Shown: positions 33,474-48,617 of the stretch, one piece after another
Layout of the letters: each line of letters begins with the position of its first letter
Numbering within the stretch: position 1 is the stretch's first letter
IMG/VR virus record: IMGVR_UViG_3300044445_000054
DNA length: 64,000 nucleotides
Direction: 5' to 3' (one strand)
Origin: a virus
Taxonomy: Duplodnaviria > Heunggongvirae > Uroviricota > Caudoviricetes
The notes under the pieces: generated by a model
The model's input: the letters and a program-made list of their open reading frames with translations, nothing else
Told to the model about the DNA's origin: nothing
Database searches by the model: none
Made by a program: the position numbers and the translations under genes

Positions 33474-33687
33474 GCCGATGGTTCCTCTTCTGGCGCTTGC
33501 GGTCGGGGCGCGGGTTGCGGCCGAAATAGCGCTGCACGCGCTTGTGCAAACGGTCGTATCCGGCCTGCACGTCGTCCCACGTCGTGACGTGGCCGCTCCA
33601 GCGCATCAGCGCGAAGCGGTGGTCAGGGGCGATGTCCTGCTCGGCGAAGTAGCCGTAGCGGCGGTCGTAGCAGAAGGGCTTGGACAT
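33466..33687 (-). CDS. small basic protein (73 aa)
   Basis: ORF; weak SD. Confidence 0.35.
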   Translation of the reverse strand: MSKPFCYDRRYGYFAEQDIAPDHRFALMRWSGHVTTWDDVQAGYDRLHKRVQRYFGRNPRPDRKRQKRNHRHD

Positions 33688-33851
33688 CAGCCGAACACCG
33701 ACTTGAAGGCGGTGGTGACTGCCGTTGCGTTGCTGACCGGACCGCCTTGCGCGAGCGCGGCGGCGTAGATGGTGGCGTAGGCCTGGAGGCGGGTGGCCTC
33801 GGCCAGCTTCTCCTGCGCGTTGGCAAGGCGGATCACGTCGGAACTGGTCAT
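33687..33851 (-). CDS. small hypothetical protein (54 aa)
   Basis: Internal ATG MTSSDVIRLANAQEKL... Confidence 0.3.
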   Translation of the reverse strand: MTSSDVIRLANAQEKLAEATRLQAYATIYAAALAQGGPVSNATAVTTAFKSVFG

Positions 33852-34084
33852 CGGTCGCTCTCCCATGTCGTTGCGATCCCGGCCAGCGGCACCCCGGCGA
33901 TCTTGGAGGGCATCCACCAGTAGGTGCCCGGCTTACGATCGTGCTCGAAGGTGTGCCACTTGCCCTCGAACTTCACCTGAAACAGGCTGTGGTCGTTGGG
34001 GTGGCGGCGCGTCGGGATGTCGATGCAGGTGAAGGGCGGGGACGCGCCGAGCTGGAGGACGGCGCTGGTCAGCTGGAGCCTCAT
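33848..34084 (-). CDS. small hypothetical protein (78 aa)
   Basis: ATGA coupling. Confidence 0.4.
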   Translation of the reverse strand: MRLQLTSAVLQLGASPPFTCIDIPTRRHPNDHSLFQVKFEGKWHTFEHDRKPGTYWWMPSKIAGVPLAGIATTWESDR

Positions 34085-34221
34085 GCCACGATCGTCCAGA
34101 AGCTGCCGCGACGCTCACGAGGGGTCAGGGCCAGCCACTGTGCGCGGCGGATGTGATAATTCGAGTGCGTCATGGTTCTTCTCCGATGGAGGCGAGCGGG
34201 TTCGCTCTATGTTCTCTTTCC

Positions 34222-34338
34222 AACTCTCATTTTTACAGTGTAGTCTCTATATAATTTTTTTATGACTGCTTCTTAAAAGATATAGAAAAAGAAAATAAAA
34301 GAGAAGGGACTACACTGTAAAAATGGGAGTTATGACTG
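34222..34338 (-). promoter_or_regulatory. AT-rich conserved element, copy 2: two inverted half-sites, CATTTTTACAGTGTAG (34228..34243) and CTACACTGTAAAAATG (34310..34325), around a 66-bp AT-rich core
   Basis: Same TTYTAC-AGN-GTAR core as the other copies. The core contains TCATAAAAAAATTATATAGAGA in minus sense. Lies between the HTH gene and the downstream small-gene operon. Confidence 0.5.
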
Positions 34339-34353
34339 CCCTTAGAATGGACC

Positions 34354-34821
34354 TCACCCGACCGCGAGAAGCGCGGTATTCCGCCATTTCTGGCGCAGGT
34401 CACGCCTGCCGGTGCACATCACGACCACCTGATCGCGGGTCAAACCGAGCGCTTTGGCGATCTTGGGCTGGCTCATGCCCGCATCCCGCATATCGAGCAC
34501 CGCGAGCCGCACAATCGGTGGCACCCAGCCCTGCTTCCAGCCGCCGTCCTGCATGGCGCGAAGCACGGCCAAACCATCCTCGCGGGTCGGTTCGGCCACG
34601 TTCTGTTCCACCATCGCCTGAACGTGGCCGAAGCCCTTGAGGTGGTCGCGCAGCCGCTCGTAATGGCGCTTCGCGTTGGGCACCCATCCAAAGACGTGGC
34701 GCGCGGCGGGCCAACCGATGGTCTCCACGAACGCGACCAACTCGCAGGCGTCGGCGTAGTCCAGGCGGGTGACGGGAATATACTTCGCCACCCTCCTGAA
34801 CTTCTGGGAGCTATACCGCAT
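34354..34821 (-). CDS. HTH-domain protein (possible transcription regulator or sigma-region-4-like; start uncertain, 34821/34857/34875)
   Basis: C-terminal HTH MSQPKIAKALGLTRDQVVVM. Immediately upstream of AT-rich element copy 2. Confidence 0.45.
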   Translation of the reverse strand: MRYSSQKFRRVAKYIPVTRLDYADACELVAFVETIGWPAARHVFGWVPNAKRHYERLRDHLKGFGHVQAMVEQNVAEPTREDGLAVLRAMQDGGWKQGWVPPIVRLAVLDMRDAGMSQPKIAKALGLTRDQVVVMCTGRRDLRQKWRNTALLAVG

Positions 34822-35041
34822 CTCCGCGGGCAAAAGGGCGTCCATCGTGTACCGCATAGAGCACGACCCTACCATCGTCCTCCTCGTGCGGGTAGGTGTT
34901 AAACCACGCATCCGCATAGGCCTGGCGGGCCTTGGCGTTCCGCAACTCGCGAGCCGCGGGCGTCTTGTCGCGGATGGAGAACGCGACCCCGATGCACAGG
35001 GCGATGACTCCGAGCACGCCCAGCACGTACAGCGCGCCCAT
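34811..35041 (-). CDS. small membrane protein (76 aa)
   Basis: N-terminal TM segment VLGVLGVIALCIGVAFSI. Confidence 0.35.
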   Translation of the reverse strand: MGALYVLGVLGVIALCIGVAFSIRDKTPAARELRNAKARQAYADAWFNTYPHEEDDGRVVLYAVHDGRPFARGDAV

Positions 35042-35181
35042 TACGCGGGCACCACGGTGTAGTGCTCACCCGAGTTGACCTCGGCGACCAGCGCGTTGGC
35101 CAGCGCGTCGCGCAGGCGGGTGAAGCCCGCGCCCACCGGGCACGCCCGGTCCACATTCCACACGATCCACTTGATCTTCAT
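35041..35181 (-). CDS. very small ORF (~46 aa), not in the ORF track
   Basis: MKIKWIVWNVDRACPVGAGFTRLRDALANALVAEVNSGEHYTVVPA. GGAGTGA SD. TAATG coupling. A CTTAAATGTTTAAG box lies just upstream. Confidence 0.3.
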   Translation of the reverse strand: MKIKWIVWNVDRACPVGAGFTRLRDALANALVAEVNSGEHYTVVPA

Positions 35182-35194
35182 GATCTTCACTCCG

Positions 35195-35208
35195 CTTAAA
35201 TGTTTAAG
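35195..35208. promoter_or_regulatory. palindromic box CTTAAATGTTTAAG (copy 1 of 4), approximate
   Basis: Perfect 6+2+6 palindrome about 15 nt upstream of a minus-strand gene start. Confidence 0.45.
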
Positions 35209-35211
35209 TCG

Positions 35212-35676
35212 TTATCGGATCGACCGATAGGCACGCATGGCGTCCGTCATGTTATACAACGGACCCTTCATGACCATGCCATAGCTCGCGAGCCGCGCCG
35301 CCTCGCGCAGCAGGCACTCGTTTCGACGCTCCGCGTGGTCCGCGGCGACGCGCGGCGCACCCGGCTCGATCGGCGCTGGCCGCACATACGGCAGCGGCTG
35401 CGCGGGCAGAAACTTGTTGGGGCGGTGGAAACGCTCGACCGCGTGGCCGTAGCGTAGGGCCGAGTTGATGCGCTCGCGCTGGCCGTCGGACAGCTTGGGC
35501 CGGTCCCGAAGGGGCGTGACGGCCGGGCGCTCCCGCGCAATCCGCTTCAGGTGCGCCTTGGACGGCGGCTGAAACTCGCGAACCGCCCGCAAATCGAACA
35601 CATCATCGGGCACGATCGGCTTCGCGTGATCCCGCAAATACGCCCATTGCTCGTGGAATTGTTCCGACTGGCCCAT
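35212..35676 (-). CDS. hypothetical protein (154 aa)
   Basis: Protein-like composition. Its start is preceded by box copy 2. Confidence 0.5.
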   Translation of the reverse strand: MGQSEQFHEQWAYLRDHAKPIVPDDVFDLRAVREFQPPSKAHLKRIARERPAVTPLRDRPKLSDGQRERINSALRYGHAVERFHRPNKFLPAQPLPYVRPAPIEPGAPRVAADHAERRNECLLREAARLASYGMVMKGPLYNMTDAMRAYRSIR

Positions 35677-35684
35677 GCCAACCC

Positions 35685-35698
35685 CTTAAATGTTTAAG
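35685..35698. promoter_or_regulatory. palindromic box CTTAAATGTTTAAG (copy 2)
   Basis: About 10 nt upstream of the ATG at 35676. Confidence 0.45.
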
Positions 35699-35788
35699 TC
35701 CGAAACCAGCTGCGCTAGGCGCAAGGCTACAGCGTCCGCCACGTAGGTGGCGGGCGGTGTAGCCGCCGCCCCGTAGGGCGGCGACTGG

Positions 35789-35802
35789 CTTAAATGTTTA
35801 AG
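35789..35802. promoter_or_regulatory. palindromic box CTTAAATGTTTAAG (copy 3; overlaps the stop of 35798..36529)
   Basis: Identical 14-mer. Confidence 0.45.
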
Positions 35803-36529
35803 CGTTGACGGCGACCGGGGCGGCTTCCATCGCCGCGTTGATGCGATCATCGAACGATGCGGTGACGGCGGCGAAGTCATCATAAACGCCGCTCAATTCG
35901 TCATCGCTGGCGGCGTCGATTGCCAGCATCAAGGCGGCCAGCATATCGGCCAGCGACGTAGCGGGCGGCGTAGCATCCGCCTCCGGCGCGGGATTGGATG
36001 CATCCAGCTTGGTAGCTTCCGCCTCCAGCTTGGCCGCCGCGGCGGCTTCCTCTGCTGCAATGCGGGCCGCCTCCTTAGCGGCGGCTTTCTTGGCGTCGGC
36101 CGCCGCCTTACGGATCAACCCGGCACGGTAATGGATGGAAGAGACACCGGCACGAATGTCCCGCTTGTCATCATCCGACAACGCATCGAACGTTTCAGCG
36201 ACAAGGCGAGCGTTCGAGAAGTAAACTTCCATGCGGCTCTTGGCTTTCTTGCCCGCGTCGGTGGTGGCCAGCGACGGCCAACCCGCCGCCATCTTGCTAT
36301 CGCCAATCAACGCATCCAGCGTCAGCGGCTTGGTATCGTCCGCCGGATAGGCCAGCGTAAACACGTTGGCCCCCCATGCCTTAGCCGTATCGGCCAGCTT
36401 GCCCTCGACTTCGATGACAGTCGAGACAAGCGACGCGGCGCTTGCCAGCATCATGCTACGTGCATCCGGGGCGGCGGCGTCGATCGTGAGAGCGTCGGTG
36501 GCGTTGATGTCGATGATGGAAACAGTCAT
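35798..36529 (-). CDS. hypothetical acidic/Ala-rich protein (243 aa)
   Basis: AAAGGAAC SD. Coiled-coil-like middle region. Confidence 0.5.
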   Translation of the reverse strand: MTVSIIDINATDALTIDAAAPDARSMMLASAASLVSTVIEVEGKLADTAKAWGANVFTLAYPADDTKPLTLDALIGDSKMAAGWPSLATTDAGKKAKSRMEVYFSNARLVAETFDALSDDDKRDIRAGVSSIHYRAGLIRKAAADAKKAAAKEAARIAAEEAAAAAKLEAEATKLDASNPAPEADATPPATSLADMLAALMLAIDAASDDELSGVYDDFAAVTASFDDRINAAMEAAPVAVNA

Positions 36530-36568
36530 GGTAGGTTCCTTTGGTTATGCCCGCTTGGGCGAAAGTGA

Positions 36569-36582
36569 CTTAAACATTTAAG
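36569..36582. promoter_or_regulatory. palindromic box CTTAAACATTTAAG (copy 4, same palindrome)
   Basis: About 40 nt upstream of the ATG at 36529. Confidence 0.45.
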
Positions 36583-36967
36583 GCCACACCGGCCTTATGC
36601 ACCAGACACACCCCTCCCGTCACCAGAAGCAGGGCTTCATGGTGTCGCTTGGTGGCCGCCGGGGCCGATGTGCTCAAAGCACGTCCTTTACTTAGAAGGA
36701 TATATAGGCGGGTATAGGTGGGGGTGCTGGGCCAGGTGGCTATCCATGCCCTAATCACCCCTAACCCCTTAGGGTAACACGCTTTTTTCTTCTAAAAATC
36801 GCACTCCCAATGCAATCATACCCCCACCGGTCGCATTATATTTTTCACGATTTCCGAGATATATAACTGGAATTGAGCCAAACCTGACGCATAATCGAGG
36901 ATTATGACCGCCAATGCGTCAAATCCGGGGTGTAAATCACGATTACACCCCGGATTTGACCCAAAAC
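36583..36967. other. 385-bp non-coding, lower-GC region adjacent to the primase-helicase gene (candidate replication origin / regulatory region)
   Basis: No credible ORF. AT-rich stretches (tatatatttttcacgatttccgagatatataactgg). Short inverted repeats (TGACGCAT...ATGCGTCA). A perfect 18-bp inverted repeat at 36918..36960. Confidence 0.4.
36918..36960. repeat. perfect 18-bp inverted repeat GTCAAATCCGGGGTGTAA-atcacga-TTACACCCCGGATTTGAC
   Basis: Lies 8 nt past the primase-helicase stop. No U tract on either strand. Confidence 0.6.
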
Positions 36968-39436
36968 CTAGCGCATCAGCGGCGTCGGCATCAAAACCTG
37001 CCGCAATGCCAGCCCGTGGACCTCGTGCCGCAGCTGACCCGTGCCATCGAAGTAGGACTGGGTGGTGTACCCCAGCTCGTCCGTCATCTGCATGAAGCGC
37101 TCGTACGTGACCCCGTATCCGCGTGCCACGTTCTTCATGAAGTCGATATACTGGTCGAACAGGGCCGTCAGATCGGCCTTGCCGCCCTCGATCGTCTCCA
37201 CCTTGTCCGAGGACTGGATGAAAGCCGCGACCGAGTTGTTCGCACGGGCCACCTGATTGAGCCGCATGATGTGGCTGGCGGGCTGGGTGTAGTCGCCCTT
37301 GGCCAGCAGCCGCTTCAGGCCCTGTGCCGCCCACGCGGCGATCGCCTCGCGTTCCTCCGCGACGAGGATTTTGTAGAAGTCGACGATCTTCTCGGCGTCC
37401 GGCACCACGCGCAGGAAGTCGAAGATCAGCCAGCGGCGCACGAACCCGCGCGACGTGTCCCGCGACCGCGGCAGATGGTTGGATCCGAACCACTGCGCCG
37501 CCTTCGGCTTGAACGGGAAGATGGCCCCGCCCTTGAACTCGGTGTTCTGTTCGGTGCCCTCGACGATTTCCTTGAAGGCCCGGCCGCCGATCGTCGCTTC
37601 CTCCGGCAACTCGCCGCAGACGTTCAGGCTCTTGCCGACCATCGGGGCCATCTGGAACCGCTCCGACCACAAGGTGGGCGGGACGGAGCAGGTGGCGGCG
37701 GGCGGCATCATGGCGCGCAGCACCTCCAGCGCCTGCGTCTTGCCGGAGCCAGCCTTGCCGTGGAGCAGGAACGCGCGCTGGAACTTGGTCGCGATGCCGA
37801 ACATCGTGGCCGCGAACGCCTCCTGCAGGGCCATCACCTTCTCGGTGTAGTCGGGATCGTCGCCCCACGACCGCTCCAGATATTCGAGCCACTTGTGGCA
37901 CTCGGCCGCCCGCTCGGGGATGTAATTGAACGGCATGGTGAAGGTCTTGCCGTACTTGGGCGAGTGGTCGTGCAGCACGAGGTTCGTGTCGAGGAACCCA
38001 TTGGCGAAATTGATCCCGTCCTCCAGCTCGTTGGCGAGCGGGGCGCGGCACAGCATCGCGATCGTCTTGGTGATCGCGACATAATCGTTGTGCCGACGCG
38101 CCAGCAGGTTGCCCTTGACGCGCTCGGCGACCTCGCGCTGGATCGCCTCGTCGTCCAGACTCTTGAAGTGCGCGCCGTTCCACTGCCAGAACAGGCCCTG
38201 ATCGTGGCGCAGCTCCCCGCCGCGGCCGATTTCCTCGATCACTTGGCGCGCGATGGCGGCGTGATCCTCGGCGATGTCGACGTCACCCTTGCGAGCGGCC
38301 TTGAAATCGGCCTTCAGATCGGCCTTCGCGTAGCCCACGTCCTTGGTGCGGGCGAAGATTTTCCCGGCCATGACCTTCATGTTGGCCTCGCTGAAGTTCT
38401 CGTCCGCCGCGAGCAGGCCGATCAGCTCGTCCACGATCTCGACCGTGCGGTCGATCGACGGCTCATGGACCATGTGCGCGTCCAGCCAGTCGGTCGCCTT
38501 CTCGATCGACCAGCGCTGGACCAAGTTCTTCTCGATCATCGCCGCGATCGCGGGGTGCGCCCGCTGGTCGTCGGTCAGCCCGTCGTCCCAGCCGTTCGGC
38601 AGGGTCGATCCGCCCTCGACGTCGCGCAGCAGGAACTCGACCAGCTTGGCCACGCCCTTCTCGGGGTCCATGTCGTCGCCCGACGACGTGGCCGTGAAGT
38701 TCTCGACCCAGTGGCGCATGTGGTTCATCGCCTCCACGAGCGTGAACCGGACGGCCTTGTCGATGCCGCGCACCACGCGCGCCAGATACCCGGCGTGCCG
38801 AACCATCTGGATGTCGCGTTCGCCCTGTGGCACCACGTCCAGCGGTGCGGAGCGGCCCGTCTGCGCGATGGTCAGGCCGGGCAGGTCGCCCAGCGCCTGA
38901 CGCAGCACCCGCTCGATGTCCGTCGGCAGGACTTGGATTTTGCCCAAGACCTCCCACAGGTTCGTGTCCGAGACATAGGGGCGCTCGGTCTTGGGGTGGA
39001 TCGAGGGCGGCAGCACCATCTGGTTGCCCTTGCCCAGAAACTCGACGATCGACTGGTTGTCGCCGTCGCGCAGCTTGAAGTTGGGCTGACCCTGCCAGCG
39101 GTAGATCAGGCCCATGCCCTTCTGACCGACGCGCTTCCACGGGGACGGCGGCAGGGCGGCGAGGATGGCGTCGATCTGCGCCTGATCCTCGGTGTCGATG
39201 TCGATCGCGCACAATCCCGAGGCCTCGCCGAACGGCAGGCCGATGTTGGAGTCGGGATAGGTGTGCAGCCACGACCGCCGGATCGCCTCCGATGGCATGA
39301 ACTCGCCGTACTGCGTCCACTCGTTCAGGATCGGGGCCTTACCCGCTCCCTTGCCGGGGCTGTTCCAGCGCTTCAAAGGCATGACGGGGATGCCCGCTGC
39401 CCAGTACAGCGGTGCGAAGTCCTTGAAAATGCTCAC
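36968..39436 (-). CDS. bifunctional primase-polymerase (PrimPol) fused to a D5/P4-type SF3 helicase
   Basis: N-terminal prim-pol block LPFGEASGLCAIDIDTED. C-terminal Walker A FLLHGKAGSGKTQA. 822 aa. Confidence 0.85.
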   Translation of the reverse strand: MSIFKDFAPLYWAAGIPVMPLKRWNSPGKGAGKAPILNEWTQYGEFMPSEAIRRSWLHTYPDSNIGLPFGEASGLCAIDIDTEDQAQIDAILAALPPSPWKRVGQKGMGLIYRWQGQPNFKLRDGDNQSIVEFLGKGNQMVLPPSIHPKTERPYVSDTNLWEVLGKIQVLPTDIERVLRQALGDLPGLTIAQTGRSAPLDVVPQGERDIQMVRHAGYLARVVRGIDKAVRFTLVEAMNHMRHWVENFTATSSGDDMDPEKGVAKLVEFLLRDVEGGSTLPNGWDDGLTDDQRAHPAIAAMIEKNLVQRWSIEKATDWLDAHMVHEPSIDRTVEIVDELIGLLAADENFSEANMKVMAGKIFARTKDVGYAKADLKADFKAARKGDVDIAEDHAAIARQVIEEIGRGGELRHDQGLFWQWNGAHFKSLDDEAIQREVAERVKGNLLARRHNDYVAITKTIAMLCRAPLANELEDGINFANGFLDTNLVLHDHSPKYGKTFTMPFNYIPERAAECHKWLEYLERSWGDDPDYTEKVMALQEAFAATMFGIATKFQRAFLLHGKAGSGKTQALEVLRAMMPPAATCSVPPTLWSERFQMAPMVGKSLNVCGELPEEATIGGRAFKEIVEGTEQNTEFKGGAIFPFKPKAAQWFGSNHLPRSRDTSRGFVRRWLIFDFLRVVPDAEKIVDFYKILVAEEREAIAAWAAQGLKRLLAKGDYTQPASHIMRLNQVARANNSVAAFIQSSDKVETIEGGKADLTALFDQYIDFMKNVARGYGVTYERFMQMTDELGYTTQSYFDGTGQLRHEVHGLALRQVLMPTPLMR

Positions 39437-40278: not shown

Positions 40279-43200
40279 ATGGCCGACGTGAAGACCTCTG
40301 CGTTCATGCTTTCGAGCGCGACGATCATGATCGGCCGCGCCTTCGTGGACGACGTGTTCGCCCTGACCCCCGACAAGCACTCCGTCGGCATGGTGTCCGA
40401 AGTCAACATCACGATGGACAGCTCGCTCACCGAGCTGACGAACGGCGTTGCACAGGCGACGGTCGACTCCAAGCGCACCGGCCTGAGCACGGCAATCAGC
40501 GGCAACGTCTTCGAGATGACCGCCCAGAACTTCCTCCGCGCACAGGGCATCACGACCGCCGCGACGCCCGTCAAGCGCGGCATCCTGATGGGGTCGGCCG
40601 CTGGTGGCTCGACCTCGCTCTCGGTCGCCTCCGACCCAATCCCCGGCGAAGCCACGTCGGCGCTCACGTCTGTCGGCGACATCCCGGCAGGATCGACCAT
40701 CCTGATCCAGCGCGGCGACGGCGAGACCGATTACATCTTCCCGACCGTGTCGAGCGGCGCGGCGACGCTGAACGCCGGGCGCTACACGATCCCGATTGCG
40801 GGCGCGAGCGCGGTCCCCGCCGACATGTCGTTCCTGATCGGCGCACGGGTCTGGATCGTCCAGCCCGTCCCCGTTGGCGACATCGGCGATGACGAGTTCT
40901 TCTGCGTCAAGATCGTCGGCACCCTGTCCAACTTCGATCGGCCGGTGGTCTACATCGCGCCGAAGGTGAAGATGGTAAAGGGCTTCTCGGCCGCCTTCAA
41001 CGAGACGCAGTACAGCTCGATGCAGTGGGAGCTGAAGCCCCACATGATGAGCCGCGGCGAGATCGCCTCCGGTGGCCGCCTGTCCGAGATCGGCGCGCGT
41101 CGCACCGGCCGCCTGTTCGTGGGCGCGGGCAACGACAGCGCAACGCCGGGGGCCGTTGTCCCCGACGCCACGTTCTCGACCAACCCCAGCTTCACGCCGA
41201 CCAGCGGCAACTCGGACACGGTCTTCACCGCCAACGACGGTGTCATCGTCAACGGCGCGTTCGCCGGACGCCGCTGGCTGCTCAGCGGCACGGCGATCGG
41301 CAGCGGAGCCACGATCAAGACGAACGCCGCGGGCCAGCTGGTGCTGGAAGTCTCGGCGCTCGGCACCAATGGTCGGGTCATCCAGTACACGACCGCGCCG
41401 CTCACGGTCGCCGCGGCTGCTGCCAAGACGCTGACGTTCCGCAACCCGCCGACGGTTCAGCTGAACGAGGGCGACTCGGGCACCAAGACCTTCACCTACT
41501 ACATCGACGCGTCGGAGGCTCCGACCAGCAATCTTGTTGTTCCGCTTACGTTCCAAGCGGGCGGCACCGACGCCTCGGATTATCCGGGCGGCACGCTGCC
41601 GTCGGTGACGAGCGCCACGATCCTCGCCGGGCAGACGTCCGTGCGCGTCGACATCGTCACTTCGGGCGACACGACGGTCGAGGGCAACGAGACCTTCAAC
41701 CTCCTGCTGTCGACGCCGACCGGCTGGACCGTCGGTGCCTTCACCAGCGCCAGCGGTGTCATCCTGAACGACGACGTCGCACCCAGCCCGACCGTCTCGC
41801 TCACCGCCGTGGATCCTCAGAACGAGGGCAACAGCGGCGTCACCAACTACGTCTATACCGTGACCCGCTCGTCCACGAGCGGTGCGGTCAACGTGCCGTG
41901 GGCGTTCGCGGCAGGCACGACCAATGCGGCCGACTTCTTCGGCGGCCTGCCAACGGGCGGCACGGTGGCGCTCGCCAACGGCGTGGCATCCGGCACCTTC
42001 ACCATCATGGTGCAGGGCGATGTCGACGTCGAGTCGAATGAGACCTTCACGGTCAGCCTGAACCCGCCGTCGGGGTACATCCTCGGCGCGACGAGCAGCG
42101 CGACGGGCACGATCCTCAACGACGACACGGTCTCGGCGATCGTGCCGTTCACGTCGGCGTTCATGACCGGCGATAGCCGCATGGACAACTCGGGCGGTCG
42201 AGGGGTAACCACAACCCTTTCGCTCACCTACGGGCAGACGGGTTACTCCAGCGCCGGGTTGATCCAGCCCATGCTTGGCAACAAGTGGCTTTGGCCGGAG
42301 GGGTTCCAGCGGTCGGTCGGTGCCAGCACCACGCTGCGCATGGTCGAGGCAAATAAGACCGCCTCGTTTGCGCTGACGGGAAACACAGCGTTCGACAGCA
42401 CCGCCAACGTTTACGACAAAATCTTCAACCGTGGCGCTGACGGTCGCTACGCCCTGCGCGATCCGGGCACGGGCGCGCACGTCTTCGAGCTGAACAGCGT
42501 GAACGACGGCGGCGGCAACGGGTACTATAATCAGCCCTTTACCGCTTCCAAGTCGATCATTCATACCGCCGCAGACATCGACGCCAATCTGGCGGCGGGC
42601 AAGGTGGTGTGGCTGTTCAACGGGTGCCCGTCGTACGCATCGGCGTACACGATGGAGCTTCGCACGATCACCGGGAATAGTTGGACTGCGACCCAGACGG
42701 CTGGCTTCATCGACGGCTTCGATTACGGCGCACCCGGCGTAGTCGGTGAGTTCGGTAGCACGCCCGCTGATTACCGAGTCATGACCCGCAAGGGCAGCAA
42801 CCCCGGTCAGTACGAATACACGGTCGACGCCAACGGCAACTACGTCGCGGGCGGCACGGCACCGACGCGAGTGTGGGTCACGCACACGGGCGGCGGCACC
42901 CTAAACGCGATCACGCCGACTTCCTCGCACATCAAGACCATGTGGGCGTGGTACAACAGCAACGCCGCAAACTTCGTGTATAACGGCAATGACTACGGCA
43001 TTCCGGGGTGTCGCTACAACCGCGATCCGAAGCGGCTCATCATCGTCGATACGATGAAGTGGCTGCGCGCTGACCTAAATGACGGCGACGTCATGGCGGC
43101 CAAGCCCGGCACGATGGACATTCTGCGTTTGCACCACAACATTCTCGGTGCATTCTGGATCAGTAAGGCCGTCGAAGAGGCGATGGCCACGGCGGGTTAT

Positions 43201-44232
43201 GCCGCACAGCCGTCGCTCGACAAGCGCCCGATGCGCAACAACTGGCCTGCGGCGATGGCAGCGGGAACTGCAAATCCGACGCTGACTTGCACTCTTCCTC
43301 CGTCCATGCGGATGGCCGTTCCGACTCAGCTGCGTCTCGGAACCGTCGTTGTTGGTCTGGTGGACACGGCAACTGGCAATATCACAACGGCCCCTGGCGC
43401 GACTTATGCAATTACGGCGGGCAATATCAACTTCGCAACGGGTGCGCTTACCGTGACGTTTGCGGGAACGCCGCCTAACAGCACTCGACTGTATTGCGAG
43501 CAGGATTTCGGCGACGGCGCGGGCGTTGGGGGAAATCTGATCCTTAACGGCATGCTTGACATGACGCCCTTGGACGGAAGCAACATCAACTTCGCTCGCA
43601 CGGGCACCTCAACGATAACGGGCATCGCGAACTCGGAAGTCCCCGTGGGATACACGCTCCAGTCGTCGGGCAATGGTATGAACACGGCGATTGCAAACGG
43701 CACCGCATCGCTGACGGTGAGTTCCGACACCACAAACGGGTATCCGATGTTCCGGCTGTCTGCGAAGGGTATCCACAGCTCAGCTATTGCCTTCACGCTG
43801 CAGCAGGCCAACGGGCCGTACGCGGCTCTGGTCCAACCCACCGACAAGATTATGGCAGGGGCAACTCTGGTTCTTGAAGCTGGCTCGGACGGCTGGCTGT
43901 ACGGCTTCGGTGGTTGCAATGTGTCGGGTACGCTGTCGATCCCCACGACCGATAAGACCGGCCCCAACGGTACGTTCGCGGTTACGCAGGTTTCCTCGAA
44001 TGGATCGCGACTGGGTCAGAACGCGCAGAGCCTGTATGTGGACAGCGCGCTGCTTGCCGCCAACGGGGGGCAGCCGTTCAAGAACCACTACCTCGGGCCT
44101 CAAGTCCAACCTGACGTGCAGCCGACTGGCACCGGAGGGTCGTTCTCCTTTTCGGTCGGAGCCAACGTCCCTTTCAGTTTCAAGATTGGCATTGGCCAGT
44201 ATCACTCGCGCGTTCGCAACGACGTAACCTAA
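40279..44232 (+). CDS. 1317-aa virion protein: N-terminal major-tail-protein-like domain, three Calx-beta-like repeats, large C-terminal domain
   Basis: Residues 1-~290 are highly similar (I estimate roughly 80%, not computed) to the 283-aa protein at 54975..55823. Repeats of VDIVTSGDTTVEGNETFNLLLS / VQGDVDVESNETFTVSLN. AAGGAG SD. Confidence 0.8.
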   Translation: MADVKTSAFMLSSATIMIGRAFVDDVFALTPDKHSVGMVSEVNITMDSSLTELTNGVAQATVDSKRTGLSTAISGNVFEMTAQNFLRAQGITTAATPVKRGILMGSAAGGSTSLSVASDPIPGEATSALTSVGDIPAGSTILIQRGDGETDYIFPTVSSGAATLNAGRYTIPIAGASAVPADMSFLIGARVWIVQPVPVGDIGDDEFFCVKIVGTLSNFDRPVVYIAPKVKMVKGFSAAFNETQYSSMQWELKPHMMSRGEIASGGRLSEIGARRTGRLFVGAGNDSATPGAVVPDATFSTNPSFTPTSGNSDTVFTANDGVIVNGAFAGRRWLLSGTAIGSGATIKTNAAGQLVLEVSALGTNGRVIQYTTAPLTVAAAAAKTLTFRNPPTVQLNEGDSGTKTFTYYIDASEAPTSNLVVPLTFQAGGTDASDYPGGTLPSVTSATILAGQTSVRVDIVTSGDTTVEGNETFNLLLSTPTGWTVGAFTSASGVILNDDVAPSPTVSLTAVDPQNEGNSGVTNYVYTVTRSSTSGAVNVPWAFAAGTTNAADFFGGLPTGGTVALANGVASGTFTIMVQGDVDVESNETFTVSLNPPSGYILGATSSATGTILNDDTVSAIVPFTSAFMTGDSRMDNSGGRGVTTTLSLTYGQTGYSSAGLIQPMLGNKWLWPEGFQRSVGASTTLRMVEANKTASFALTGNTAFDSTANVYDKIFNRGADGRYALRDPGTGAHVFELNSVNDGGGNGYYNQPFTASKSIIHTAADIDANLAAGKVVWLFNGCPSYASAYTMELRTITGNSWTATQTAGFIDGFDYGAPGVVGEFGSTPADYRVMTRKGSNPGQYEYTVDANGNYVAGGTAPTRVWVTHTGGGTLNAITPTSSHIKTMWAWYNSNAANFVYNGNDYGIPGCRYNRDPKRLIIVDTMKWLRADLNDGDVMAAKPGTMDILRLHHNILGAFWISKAVEEAMATAGYAAQPSLDKRPMRNNWPAAMAAGTANPTLTCTLPPSMRMAVPTQLRLGTVVVGLVDTATGNITTAPGATYAITAGNINFATGALTVTFAGTPPNSTRLYCEQDFGDGAGVGGNLILNGMLDMTPLDGSNINFARTGTSTITGIANSEVPVGYTLQSSGNGMNTAIANGTASLTVSSDTTNGYPMFRLSAKGIHSSAIAFTLQQANGPYAALVQPTDKIMAGATLVLEAGSDGWLYGFGGCNVSGTLSIPTTDKTGPNGTFAVTQVSSNGSRLGQNAQSLYVDSALLAANGGQPFKNHYLGPQVQPDVQPTGTGGSFSFSVGANVPFSFKIGIGQYHSRVRNDVT

Positions 44233-44244
44233 GAGGATAAAGAC

Positions 44245-45219
44245 ATGATGAAGTTTTTGATTGCTGCTGCAGCGATGCTTTGGGCGTCGCCCGTAGCCGC
44301 TGCTGATCTGACGGCGACCCCGTCGACCTACAAGACCGTCGCCGCCGCGGCCAAGTGCGGCGACACGGTGACGCTGGCGGCCGGTGACTACGGCGCGGTG
44401 CAGGTCACGCGCTACAACACGCCGGGTGCGATCGCGTGCCCCGCCGACAACCGCATCGAAATCCGCGCCGAGGATGCGCGAATGGACTCGCTGACCTTTC
44501 GCGCCGTGCAGGGCGTCAACTGGTTCGGCGGCTTCATCAGCGCACCGCTGGGCGTCGCCACCCCCGGCGTGACGATGGACAGCTCGCGCTTCGTCCGCTT
44601 CGCAGGCGGACTGGTCACCGGCCACAAGGTCGGCGTCACCGCGGTGCGCGGCTCCGACTATGAGATCGTCGGCAACCGCTTCCAGGGTCTGCGCAGCGAC
44701 GGTATCAATGTAACCTCCTCGCAGCGCGTGCTGATCGAGAGCAATCAGGTCGTGATGACGGTGCCGATCAAGGCGACGTACACGCCCGAGGGCAAATTGC
44801 TGGTCGACGGCGACCATTCGGACGGTGTCCAAGCGTGGAATACGGCGGGCCTGCCGCGCGTGACCGATGTGACGATCCGCGGCAATTACTTCCGCGGCAT
44901 GATGCAGGGTATCGCGGTGTTCGACGCGGGCAAGGGCGGCGTCGACCGCTTCATCGTCGAGAACAACACGATCGATGGCATCGACTTCTGGCACGGCATC
45001 ACGCTGACCGAGGCGCGCGACAGCGTGATCCGCGATAACATCGTGCTGACGCGCAAGGGTGCCAAGGCGTGGAACTTCCCGTTCCAGCCCATCAAGACGT
45101 GGGTGTCGATCCCCGGAGCGATCAACGTGGTCGCCTGCGGCAACACCGTCCCGGCGATGCCCGGCGGCGTGGGCACCAAGCCCTGTTCGGCGGCCACTGC
45201 CTTGCGGTCTGCCAAGTAA
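44245..45219 (+). CDS. secreted right-handed beta-helix (pectate-lyase-fold) protein
   Basis: Signal peptide MMKFLIAAAAMLWASPVAAA. Repeated xNxxIxxN beta-helix rungs (IESNQV, IRGNYF, VENNTIDG, IRDNIV). Confidence 0.65.
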   Translation: MMKFLIAAAAMLWASPVAAADLTATPSTYKTVAAAAKCGDTVTLAAGDYGAVQVTRYNTPGAIACPADNRIEIRAEDARMDSLTFRAVQGVNWFGGFISAPLGVATPGVTMDSSRFVRFAGGLVTGHKVGVTAVRGSDYEIVGNRFQGLRSDGINVTSSQRVLIESNQVVMTVPIKATYTPEGKLLVDGDHSDGVQAWNTAGLPRVTDVTIRGNYFRGMMQGIAVFDAGKGGVDRFIVENNTIDGIDFWHGITLTEARDSVIRDNIVLTRKGAKAWNFPFQPIKTWVSIPGAINVVACGNTVPAMPGGVGTKPCSAATALRSAK

Positions 45220-48565: not shown

Positions 48566-48617
48566 TAACTCTCATTTCTACAGAGTAAAAATGAGAGTCA
48601 TAAAAATATATAAGAGG
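48566..48617 (+). promoter_or_regulatory. conserved AT-rich promoter/operator element, copy 3 (inverted near-identical copy of 2115..2166)
   Basis: taactctcatttctacagagtaaaaatgagagtcataaaaatatataagagg. Followed by AAGAGGAAG and, about 55 nt later, the ATG of the scaffold gene. Confidence 0.5.

Follow-up and report, generated by a model that had tools for sequence, protein, structure and literature searches.

In the immunity modules of lambdoid phages (imm-lambda, imm434, imm21), cI and Cro act at OR and OL on short dyads, 14 bp long in the 434 operators, whose outer half-sites are recognized and whose center is left uncontacted; the regulator gene adjoins its own sites, and protein and site are swapped together as a mosaic module. 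KorB of the IncP plasmid RK2 acts on about a dozen identical 13-bp palindromes (TTTAGCSGCTAAA) at promoters, away from them or within genes, coordinating a regulon. In phage lambda, Nu1 with the R sites of cosB and O with the ori iterons each combine an N-terminal specificity domain that covaries with the sites and a conserved C-terminal partner domain, and the gene adjoins its sites near the genome end. Cluster K mycobacteriophages carry a conserved 13-mer (SAS/ESAS) just upstream of, and including, the ribosome-binding site (RBS); the SAS is asymmetric and fixed in position relative to the start, and we know of no cognate protein for it. In Cluster A mycobacteriophages, according to two accounts of the L5/Bxb1 repressor (PMC9283540; PMC6550527), many stoperator copies are set along a long operon, in small intergenic gaps or across start and stop codons; repressor bound there halts elongation, and site and repressor specificities co-evolve. 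Stoperators are described (PMC9283540) as asymmetric 13-mers that follow the direction of transcription and bind the repressor as a monomer.

Here we examine a 64,000-nt stretch of phage DNA (the window) in which a 14-bp near-palindrome recurs at the gene boundaries of one small operon. Related phages carry either this palindrome (type I) or another (type II), paired with one of two families (I or II) of a protein whose gene is bracketed by two of the copies. With moderate confidence, and from comparison of the sequences, we propose that the four 14-mers of the window are the cognate operators of this 243-aa protein, encoded by the first gene of a short early operon that comes after the primase. 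The locus resembles Cro/CI-like modules in having a dyad of 14-18 bp with conserved half-sites and a tolerant center; it departs from the lambdoid modules in that the protein has no recognizable helix-turn-helix (HTH) or known DNA-binding fold and that the sites stand one per cistron boundary, over start or stop codons or in genes, rather than at two promoters. With KorB and its OB sites it would share the use of one protein on scattered identical palindromes in a coordinated regulon. Intergenic gaps and codon overlaps are occupied as by stoperators, whereas a fixed-orientation asymmetric 13-bp site was not found: the sites here are dyads, their center orientation flips, they number only 3-7 per genome, and the protein is unrelated. 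Unlike the SAS, type I sites have no set position (they range from -43 to +1, or lie behind stops or mid-gene), and a protein covaries with them; only the variant in phage Seuss, the closest to the SAS, resembles a site fixed 3-8 nt upstream and including the RBS. Finally, in contrast to the Nu1 and O systems, the sites lie scattered at the starts of genes across kilobases (17 kb in Seuss), the gene has no linkage to TerL, the sites are not placed by a cleavage site as for a small terminase, and there is no fold similarity.

Copies of the 14-mer and their surroundings

An exact scan finds CTTAAA-TG-TTTAAG four times in the 64 kb (sites A to D; Table 1) and never in 100 dinucleotide-preserving shuffles, the chance expectation being 0, which confirms the four positions given in the preliminary description. 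Scanning the whole 64-kb window with up to three mismatches gave no further copy, nor did a search with TTAAANNTTTAA allowing one mismatch add a site. The repeat had been called a perfect palindrome, which is inexact: it is a 6+2+6 near-palindrome in which the arms CTTAAA and TTTAAG alone are complementary, and its center is asymmetric. Because the central TG reads CA on the opposite strand, site A is inverted relative to the rest: the coding (minus) strand has CTTAAACATTTAAG at sites B, C and D and the reverse complement, CTTAAATGTTTAAG, at site A. The placement of the copies 10-40 nt upstream of small genes, with one over a stop codon, was essentially right (39, 8 and 13 nt for A, C and D). 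The 14-mer is an AT-rich island in a genome of 64% GC.

Table 1. Features of the locus, listed from the leader onward; for sites A to D the strand given is the one that reads CTTAAA-TG-TTTAAG.
Feature	Coordinates	Strand	Remarks
AT-rich non-coding leader, 385 bp	36583-36967	-	between the primase stop and site A
Site A palindrome	36569-36582	-	39 nt 5' of the ATG (36529) of the 243-aa gene; coding-strand CTTAAATGTTTAAG
Small 5'-UTR hairpin	36549-36561	-	directly after site A
243-aa gene	35798-36529	-	first gene after the leader; bracketed by sites A and B; proposed site-binding regulator
Site B palindrome	35789-35802	+	over the TAA stop (35798-35800) of the 243-aa gene
Structured spacer, 90 nt	35699-35788	-	from site B to site C; two strong GC hairpins, no U-tract
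Site C palindrome	35685-35698	+	8 nt 5' of the ATG (35676) of the 154-aa gene
154-aa gene	35212-35676	-	function not assigned; sites C and D flank it as direct repeats
Site D palindrome	35195-35208	+	3 nt past the stop of the 154-aa gene; 13 nt 5' of the ATG (35181) of the 46-aa gene
46-aa gene (MKIKWIVWNVD...)	35041-35181	-	kept in type I and type II phages; putative target downstream of site D
167-aa protein gene	34354-34857	-	C-terminal sigma-region-4/KorB-like HTH; same early block

The leader is probably the promoter region. It contains blocks common to type I and type II phages (GAAAAAATAT, GTGTTACCCT, CAGCACCCCCACC, CTATATATCC and GGTGACGGGAGAGCTRTG) and, by synteny with phages Seuss and Lumi, also includes the inner boundary of the terminal repeat. 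A consensus scan of positions 33500-37200 for sigma-70 promoters and terminators found none at the sites and counts at the level of shuffled sequence, and no site had a promoter nearby that we could assign with confidence; Rfam 15 covariance models gave no match at E<=1 in 35100-37000. In alignments read by eye, the stem of the 5'-UTR hairpin appears to covary among relatives (GCCC/GGGC, GGCCC/GGGCC, GCCGC/GCGGC and TCCC/GGGA, with a loop of AAC or AAG). The spacer after site B looks like a terminator or attenuator, and RNAfold predicts an equivalent GC hairpin after site B in most relatives examined. The 3' end of site C forms part of the Shine-Dalgarno sequence (SD) AAGGGG. Across relatives the 154-aa gene is cassette-like, being shortened, replaced or absent.

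Conservation of the sites and the nature of the constraint

In 13 related loci from metagenomic phages (given L numbers below), the same 14-mer occurs at the homologous boundaries between genes; the conservation among relatives which the preliminary description had singled out as a check is borne out. With one mismatch allowed, 53 type I sites are present in the 14 loci that encode a family I protein, 3-7 per genome, and they stay at the same boundaries though the surrounding proteins are only 45-85% identical. Their positions range from -43 to overlap with the ATG, after stop codons and mid-gene. A homolog of site A lies 22-43 nt 5' of the orthologous gene in L125, L123, L124, L127, L132, L134 and L135, as well as in L136 (with one mismatch), L138 and L141; it has no counterpart in the distant type I genomes L139, L140 and L143. 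Site B falls on the stop codon likewise in L125, L123, L132 and L141, and its palindrome lies inside a covarying GC stem in L124, L134, L135, L143 and the type II locus L144. Homologs of site C are found in L127, L138, L139, L140 and L143. At site D, the ATG of the palindrome is itself the start codon of the downstream gene (MFKW...) in L123, L124, L134, L135 and L141.

The palindromes are retained despite a coding cost, over stop codons, over start codons and within coding sequence. At least four different genes take their start codon and first two codons (MFK) from a palindrome, and in most relatives the gene of the 167-aa HTH protein contains a copy at either of two places, read as LKCL or LKHLS (the gene in the window has none). 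The arms of type I sites are invariant apart from rare single-base variants, which are uncompensated (...TTTAAA in L125, CTAAAA... in L136, GTTAAA... in L143). The center is tolerant (TG in 33 sites, CA in 13, CG in 3, plus CAG in L127), and at sites A, B and D its orientation is reversed in some genomes relative to the homologous site in others; symmetrized flanks favor S-R on both sides, extending the dyad to 18 bp. As judged from these alignments, the constraint on the palindromes acts at the level of sequence and not of structure. A scan of IMG/VR with the bare 14-mer was uninformative, with single chance hits in AT-rich phages among the matches listed; the 18-mer dyad was found in 13 stretches, with multiple copies or a recognizable context only in this phage group. 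Near-identical DNA was not found among GenBank phages.

Palindrome and protein change together

The type II loci (L142, L144, L145-147 and L148-149) contain TGGGAA-NN-TTCCCA, in four copies each where 0 are expected, at the positions of the type I sites, the position of site A included, and contain no type I site (duplex forms: type I, GGCTTAAATGTTTAAGTC; type II, ACTGGGAATATTCCCAAA). It is exactly these loci in which the bracketed protein has an unrelated N-terminal region of ~170 residues: the N-terminal regions of families I and II give a BLASTP E of 1.2, and the hhalign alignment is confined to the last 49 residues (E=2.7e-9). The N-terminal domain of the 243-aa protein is common to all type I loci and confined to them; the other neighboring genes examined, within the 5-10 kb around each locus, are common to both types. 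The pairing is without exception (family I with type I in 14 loci, family II with type II in 4 independent contigs); the covariation table covers fewer loci than the roughly 70 short contigs on which family I or II genes occur. The sites are real, kept at homologous boundaries and perfectly covarying with the N-terminal region of the 243-aa protein; this covariation establishes a coupling between sites and protein and not, of itself, physical binding.

By these comparisons the type switch is mosaic relative to the phage backbone. Some type II relatives have a primase 86-89% identical to that of type I phages, and the primase of type II locus L142 shares 89% identity with that of type I locus L141 and just 61-63% with those of type II loci L144 and L145. 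The flanks of site D are homologous between the window and L142, where the flank cggagtgaagatcATG follows a type II palindrome; the palindromes themselves differ. Further afield, Seuss, Lumi and JWF have yet other pairs at this position: in each phage a different palindrome accompanies a different, unrelated protein of 220-270 aa, and copies stand in front of its gene, behind the stop codon together with a hairpin, and ahead of the genes that follow. The palindromes in this set are TTTACC-N3-GGTAAA, TTACTAG-N-CTAGTAA and GTTCGT-T-ACGAAC. The Seuss palindrome, TTTACC-TGA-GGTAAA, contains the annotated RBS/SD and lies 4-17 nt before the ATGs of five separate genes, rIIA, gp101 and gp116 among them, that are scattered across ~17 kb; this distribution is regulon-like. 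Since sister phages use other palindromes, the binder would be a phage-encoded protein of variable specificity and not a conserved host factor.

The bracketed protein and its helix-turn-helix neighbor

The 243-aa protein belongs to no Pfam or PHROG family and has no recognizable HTH or other known DNA-binding fold or domain; its AF2 model (pLDDT 88) has no structural neighbor in the PDB or BFVD. It consists of a variable N-terminal region (~1-180) with a long helix at 132-178, followed by a conserved acidic C-terminal three-helix domain, and is acidic overall (pI 4.4), being basic only at segment 131-180. A tblastn search of phages returned no match, and a prophage and host search of 185,579 reference genomes returned no family I relative. 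As no integrase or prophage copies were found, we take the system to be early-operon control in a virulent-type phage rather than lysogenic immunity. The C terminus of most family members is -AA, a candidate degron, and hints at a regulator that is short-lived and works like a timer.

The neighboring 167-aa protein has a confident AF2 model, which matches only generic sigma-r4, KorB and LuxR HTH domains; the protein also gives a weak hit to 7R6R/7TZ1. We considered it as the binder and rejected it: the protein does not covary with the palindrome, and the same recognition helix occurs in L141 (type I) and L142 (type II).

A proposed regulator with its cognate operators

Because the palindrome changes whenever the front domain of the adjacent phage protein changes, that protein is the most likely binder of the 14-mers. 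We propose that it would bind double-stranded CTTAAA-YR-TTTAAG directly as a symmetric oligomer, with contacts to both 6-bp arms and to the bases immediately beside them, and none to the center. Specificity would reside in the variable N-terminal region, and the conserved acidic C-terminal domain may contact a conserved partner or serve oligomerization. Site A, between the leader with its probable promoter and the start codon of the 243-aa gene itself, would allow autoregulation, which is not universal, as site A is absent in L139, L140 and L143. At sites B, C and D, on the next cistron boundaries, bound protein could act on the downstream small genes as a roadblock or by occlusion. The target would presumably be DNA rather than RNA, the effect repression rather than activation, and the timing early; action at promoters, as an elongation roadblock or on mRNA are the modes we envisage. 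The preliminary description had suggested an operator family forming a regulon for the small genes: a family of specific sites, conserved in 13 loci and switching with a phage protein, is upheld, and its appeal to a host regulator is not.

The same palindromes could instead act as mRNA hairpins, with a stem of 5-6 bp and a loop of 3-4 nt, at translation-initiation regions, either bound by the covarying protein as a translational repressor or alone sequestering the SD or AUG. T4 RegA and the coat-protein operators of RNA phages are the comparisons here. We regard this reading as a whole as unlikely, if far from negligible. The sites all belong to one operon, in its transcribed sense, and most abut or overlap an SD or start codon, the Seuss palindrome holding the annotated RBS of five genes; with sites so tightly tied to ribosome-binding regions, and an SD within the palindrome in Seuss, an RNA-level mechanism fits this aspect equally well. 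RNAfold pairs the arms in most contexts, and at site B of L124, L134, L135, L143 and L144 the palindrome tips a longer stem with compensatory changes. Within a type, however, the stems of the palindromes themselves show no compensatory substitutions and the loops are free (TG, CA and CG; TT, AA, AT, TA and TG), and RNA-binding proteins that recognize hairpins usually select the opposite. The type I stem has only five A-U-rich pairs and is marginally stable; sites A (22-43 nt 5' of the ATG), B (after the stop) and E (mid-gene) lie away from ribosome-binding sites; and symmetric flank preferences suit a duplex dyad.

Quite improbable, in our estimate, is that the bracketed protein is the missing small terminase or an origin-binding initiator, with the palindromes as its recognition sites beside the end of the genome or the primase. 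The parts of Seuss, JWF and Lumi that were examined carry no annotated small terminase, and TerL (GpA type) comes first in its operon there; the module lies within mapped terminal repeats (1748 bp in Seuss, 2298 bp in Lumi); the conserved AT-rich leader adjoins the primase gene in the window; and a variable N-terminal specificity region, a long helix and a conserved C-terminal partner domain recall Nu1 and lambda O. Yet the sites are not arrayed at one point but stand one per cistron boundary over 1.4-5 kb, and in Seuss they extend up to ~17 kb from the repeat, before rIIA, gp101 and gp116. The gene heads a small early-type block on the strand opposite to TerL, ~9 kb away in the window, and in many relatives several kb of opposite-strand tail or enzyme genes separate it from the primase. 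We found no structural likeness of the 243-aa protein to a terminase small subunit or initiator; a 165-aa protein divergent from TerL, considered as a small-terminase candidate, gave no informative match.

Passive recombination linkers at cassette boundaries have precedents in the PeSL elements of T4-type phages and the boundary sequences of lambdoid phages, and gene content between copies does vary among relatives: L142 has an extra 69-aa gene exactly between two copies with similar flanks, and in the window the 154-aa gene lies between direct copies. Repeats that are linkers without a binding function would leave unexplained the palindromy, the switch of type with a protein domain, the copies in conserved coding sequence and the retention of the 14-mer as flanks diverge; we hold this to be very unlikely, and gene shuffling at the palindromes is more likely a by-product.

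The resemblance to a CtrA box noted in the preliminary description finds no support, as the 53 type I sites have TTAA-N4-TTAA (N5 in L127) and not N7 and sister phages use other palindromes. That the 14-mer is a host-regulator box of this kind or a piece of a host-sigma promoter, such as an extended -10 of the form TGnTTAAGT, strikes us as scarcely credible: TTAA half-sites in an AT-rich island of a 64% GC genome, the TG-N-TTAAGT that the TG-centered orientation places 30-40 nt before the ATG at site A in most genomes, and a phage-borne tmRNA of alphaproteobacterial type, which suggests an alphaproteobacterial host, speak for it, but site A has the CA orientation in L134 and L135, several copies lie over a start codon or mid-gene, where they cannot be the promoter for that gene, and close relatives (primase 86-89% identical) swap the box for unrelated GC-richer palindromes together with a phage protein domain. 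We also dismissed site-specific inversion at the inverted pair A and D (23-nt arms), since every relative has its genes in one and the same order and orientation.

Implications for the phage group

If the 243-aa protein does act on the 14-mers, there is now a testable function and a defined target for the 'hypothetical proteins' that head the terminal-repeat early operon in a group of phages that is widespread yet has gone unstudied (Seussvirus, JWF, Lumi and numerous metagenomic relatives from soil and freshwater). Annotators should also beware that the motif contains the start of several genes (MFK...) and that gene callers run open reading frames through it. More tentatively, and doubtful as a whole, Seuss-, JWF- and Lumi-like phages may have a terminal-repeat class of fold-orphan, short-lived DNA-binding proteins that police their own early operon through dyads at start and stop codons, with at least five specificities, families I and II having swapped the N-terminal recognition region and kept the C-terminal effector domain. 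The protein has no recognizable DNA-binding fold, yet at least two related families and three positional analogs match different dyads, and the class could therefore reveal a new recognition scaffold. The locus offers a natural case in which a regulator and all its dispersed sites switch together, in phages without sign of lysogeny. Since specificity differs between near-identical phages, the system may act like heteroimmunity for virulent phages; if so, a resident infection would silence the early operon of any superinfecting phage of its own type and spare that of a phage of another type.

Palindromic sites in the window

The 64-kb window contains exactly four copies of the near-palindrome CTTAAATGTTTAAG (sites A-D), and 100 shuffles of the sequence contain none; allowing up to three mismatches, or scanning for TTAAANNTTTAA at up to one, added no further copy within the window. 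The preliminary description had reported four identical perfect palindromes, one of them overlapping a stop codon. An exact-match scan bears out all four positions and the overlap, which falls on the TAA of the 243-aa gene (site B), and the CTTAAA and TTTAAG arms of the 6+2+6 layout are indeed complementary; the TG/CA centre is not, and the fourth copy (site A) is therefore inverted. GC3 analysis and ORF listing place every gene between position 1 and about 40140 on the minus strand.

Features of the window in and around the palindrome cluster
Feature	Coordinates	Strand	Remarks
Permuted (two-piece) alphaproteobacterial tmRNA	1154-1420	minus	RF01849, 51.9 bits; RF04321, 50.3 bits (Rfam, gathering-level)
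Second AT-rich repeat family	2134-2164; 34222-34248/34305-34331; 48568-48598		non-coding gaps
AT-rich gap	34085-34353		27-nt inverted pair of the second repeat family, 56 nt apart
167-aa protein gene	34354-34857	minus	C-terminal HTH
76-aa membrane protein gene		minus	between 46-aa and 167-aa genes
46-aa gene	35041-35181	minus
Site D	35195	plus	3 nt past 154-aa stop, 13 nt ahead of 46-aa ATG
154-aa gene	35212-35676	minus
Site C	35685	plus	8 nt upstream of 154-aa ATG
Hairpin-rich spacer			90 nt, between 243-aa and 154-aa genes
Site B	35789	plus	overlaps 243-aa TAA
243-aa gene	35798-36529	minus
Site A	36569	minus (reverse complement)	39 nt upstream of 243-aa ATG
AT-rich non-coding leader	36583-36967		385 bp, between primase-helicase and 243-aa gene
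PrimPol/DUF5906 primase-helicase gene	36968-39436	minus
Calx-beta (1317 aa) and beta-helix (324 aa) protein genes	40279-45219	plus	upstream of TerL

Covariation of the palindrome and the adjacent protein

Comparison with related phages makes it highly probable that the sites are cognate to the protein encoded beside them. One related locus, L142, has no type I site (CTTAAA-NN-TTTAAG) and carries TGGGAA-TR-TTCCCA four times at the positions of the type I loci, with cggagtgaagatcATG directly after its site D, just as after that of the window. The product of the gene between these sites A and B is a 232-aa protein unrelated to the window 243-aa protein except in the C-terminal tail (BLASTP E=1.2), and this protein defines family II (34 database members), family I being the homologues of the 243-aa protein. 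Every fetched family II contig (L144, L145-147, L148-149) has four TGGGAA-NN-TTCCCA (type II) sites and zero type I sites. The two families align over their last 49 residues only (hhalign, probability 96%, E=2.7e-9), and the N-terminal ~140 residues are common strictly within each type (BLASTP); all-against-all clustering of every ORF of the fetched neighbourhoods revealed no other gene family with this distribution. Since the L142 primase is 89% identical to that of type I locus L141 and 80-86% to those of the window, L123 and L124, and only 61-63% to those of type II loci L144 and L145, the type split is not a clade split. The N-terminal region and all the dispersed sites have thus been exchanged or converted together, which requires functional coupling.

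The 167-aa HTH protein, our first suspect as binder, was rejected, since type I and type II phages alike retain it, with an unchanged recognition helix.

Conservation among type I relatives

The primase, the HTH protein and the 243-aa protein served as queries to collect DNA of relatives from three sources: IMG/VR, metagenomes at JGI, and assemblies in Logan/ENA. Conservation in related phages had been put forward as a check, and the 14-mer does recur at homologous places in 13 further family I loci, two to six times each (type I sites at ≤1 mismatch number 53 in total). Site A lies 22-43 nt from the ATG of the family I gene, site B on or just past its stop, and sites C and D ahead of the next genes; a site E falls within the HTH gene at two alternative positions, encoding LKCL or LKHLS. 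The 46-aa gene (MFKW...) begins at the central ATG of the motif in five genomes, and starts of other genes come from the motif in L136, L138, L139 and L143.

The type I arms are invariant, the few single-base variants being uncompensated. The centre (TG 33 times, CA 13, CG 3) flips among genomes at homologous sites, and in L127 sites A, B and C take the 15-bp form CTTAAA-CAG-TTTAAG, spaced as in the window; symmetrised flanks favour S-R, giving an 18-bp dyad. Invariant stems, a free centre, symmetric flanks and uncompensated changes are the mark of a symmetric protein oligomer that reads duplex DNA, the opposite of the pattern expected of structure-only RNA elements.

In L125 (15639; MFKWFNRLK...), L123 (11529), L124 (12780) and L136 (6338), mechanical ORF calls carry the family I gene back across site A, since they pick up either an in-frame ATG in the motif or a start codon beyond it. 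Conservation of the MTV start marks these extensions as artefacts, by which annotation of this phage group is easily misled.

Isolated phages and terminal repeats

The window primase shares ~40% identity with its counterparts from Seuss, a Caulobacter phage, JWF and 2-1, both of Achromobacter, and the Xylophilus phage Lumi. Seuss has TTTACC-NNN-GGTAAA directly ahead of gp003 (223 aa, a positional analogue), ahead of gp002 and, outside its terminal repeat, ahead of gp116, gp101 and rIIA, a spread of ~17 kb; Lumi has TTACTAG-N-CTAGTAA ahead of Lumi_003, past its stop with a hairpin, and ahead of Lumi_002; JWF has GTTCGT-T-ACGAAC ahead of gp002 and gp001. In no genome do two palindrome types occur together. 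The Seuss, Lumi and JWF proteins show no sequence relationship to one another, nor to family I or family II. They share with both families a terminal A-x-A or AA (-AA in 38/40 family I and 24/34 family II database proteins), an ending that, by speculative analogy with ClpX C-terminal degrons, might confer proteolytic instability.

Both Seuss (1748 bp in the record) and Lumi (2298 bp by PhageTerm; PMC9959647) have this gene, with the sites next to it, within their direct terminal repeats. Judging from synteny, the window cluster probably occupies an equivalent block, from about 36.85 kb in the leader to the AT-rich gap; the inner repeat boundary of Seuss falls in the region equivalent to this leader. 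Between the primase-side terminator of Seuss and that boundary, just outside the repeat, five tandem copies of the GC-rich GACCCGCGAGCGG occur at 1860-1975 with 20- and 32-bp periods. When the window leader was compared with the ~430 nt that precede site A in L123-L148, the blocks TATATGTCCAAAAAGTSGAAAAAATAT, GTGGGNRGACTATTGC, GTGTTACCCT, CAGCACCCCCACCT, CTATATATCC and GGTGACGGGAGAGCTRTG proved to be kept at the nucleotide level in type I and type II phages. The leader has no Rfam match, and may hold promoters, a terminal-repeat boundary/packaging signal or an origin.

Genomic surroundings

The late genes include a GpA-type TerL, portal and major head protein; other products are rIIA-like, RNR, ligase and helicase. 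A scan of the larger window ORFs turned up no integrase, and among 185,579 reference genomes of bacteria and archaea none has a relative of the 243-aa family. The phage-encoded tmRNA hints at an alphaproteobacterial host. The second AT-rich repeat family, probably the "first family" of the preliminary description, forms ACTCTCAT-N15-ATGAGAGT dyads flanked by CTCTTATATATTTTTATG at 2134 and 48568, and may comprise promoter or terminator elements. In place of the Calx-beta and beta-helix genes, L136, L138-L140 and L142-L144 have opposite-strand tail-fibre/enzyme-like genes (cellulase, GDSL lipase, a 1164-aa protein) between primase and site A; the region is a mobile receptor-binding or depolymerase module. 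Window proteins P0001 and P0072 have database copies on a 131,277-bp JGI contig, as against 79-84 kb for complete-looking relatives, indicating either a larger phage or a concatemeric/chimeric assembly.

Roles of the sites

A regulon had been proposed for the small genes past the primase. The coupling of the sites to the adjacent protein favours it; that the dyads are DNA operators controlling the early operon we hold with moderate confidence, at somewhat better than even. In the best-supported mechanism the 243-aa protein would bind the dyads, regulating its own gene from site A and the following cistrons from sites B-D. Every site B comes with a strong GC hairpin, which either lies next to the palindrome or carries it at the tip, and the flanking stems covary (gcggggcga/tcgccccgc, gcgagaga/tctctcgc, gcgaggca/tgcctcgc; ggggcggatt/aatccgcccc in type II locus L144), which suggests a terminator or attenuator past the regulator gene whose read-through may be modulated.

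An operator acting at the RNA level is a real, if unlikely, rival, given how closely the sites adjoin ribosome-binding regions and that the SD lies within the Seuss palindrome. Lambda Nu1 and O are attractive precedents for a packaging (TerS/cosB-like) or origin-binding role, and TerS is unannotated in this group; the placing of one site per cistron and, in Seuss, the spread over 17 kb speak against such a role. The CtrA resemblance remarked on earlier finds no support, a host CtrA-like factor being essentially excluded by the half-site spacing, unlike that of the CtrA box, and by palindrome type switching among relatives. Gene content between copies varies, with some genes flanked by direct copies, and a side effect of the repeats is probably to favour the shuffling of cassettes as well.

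Relation to known systems

As operators bound by the 243-aa protein, the sites would most closely resemble an immunity-type repressor/operator module in their way of working, and stoperators and KorB in their dispersed layout. They are symmetric, in contrast to the asymmetric stoperators, and are not clustered at cos, pac or ori, unlike packaging/origin systems; the 243-aa protein has no recognisable HTH or ParB domain. The module belongs to none of these named families, and we found no account of these motifs in the literature searched.
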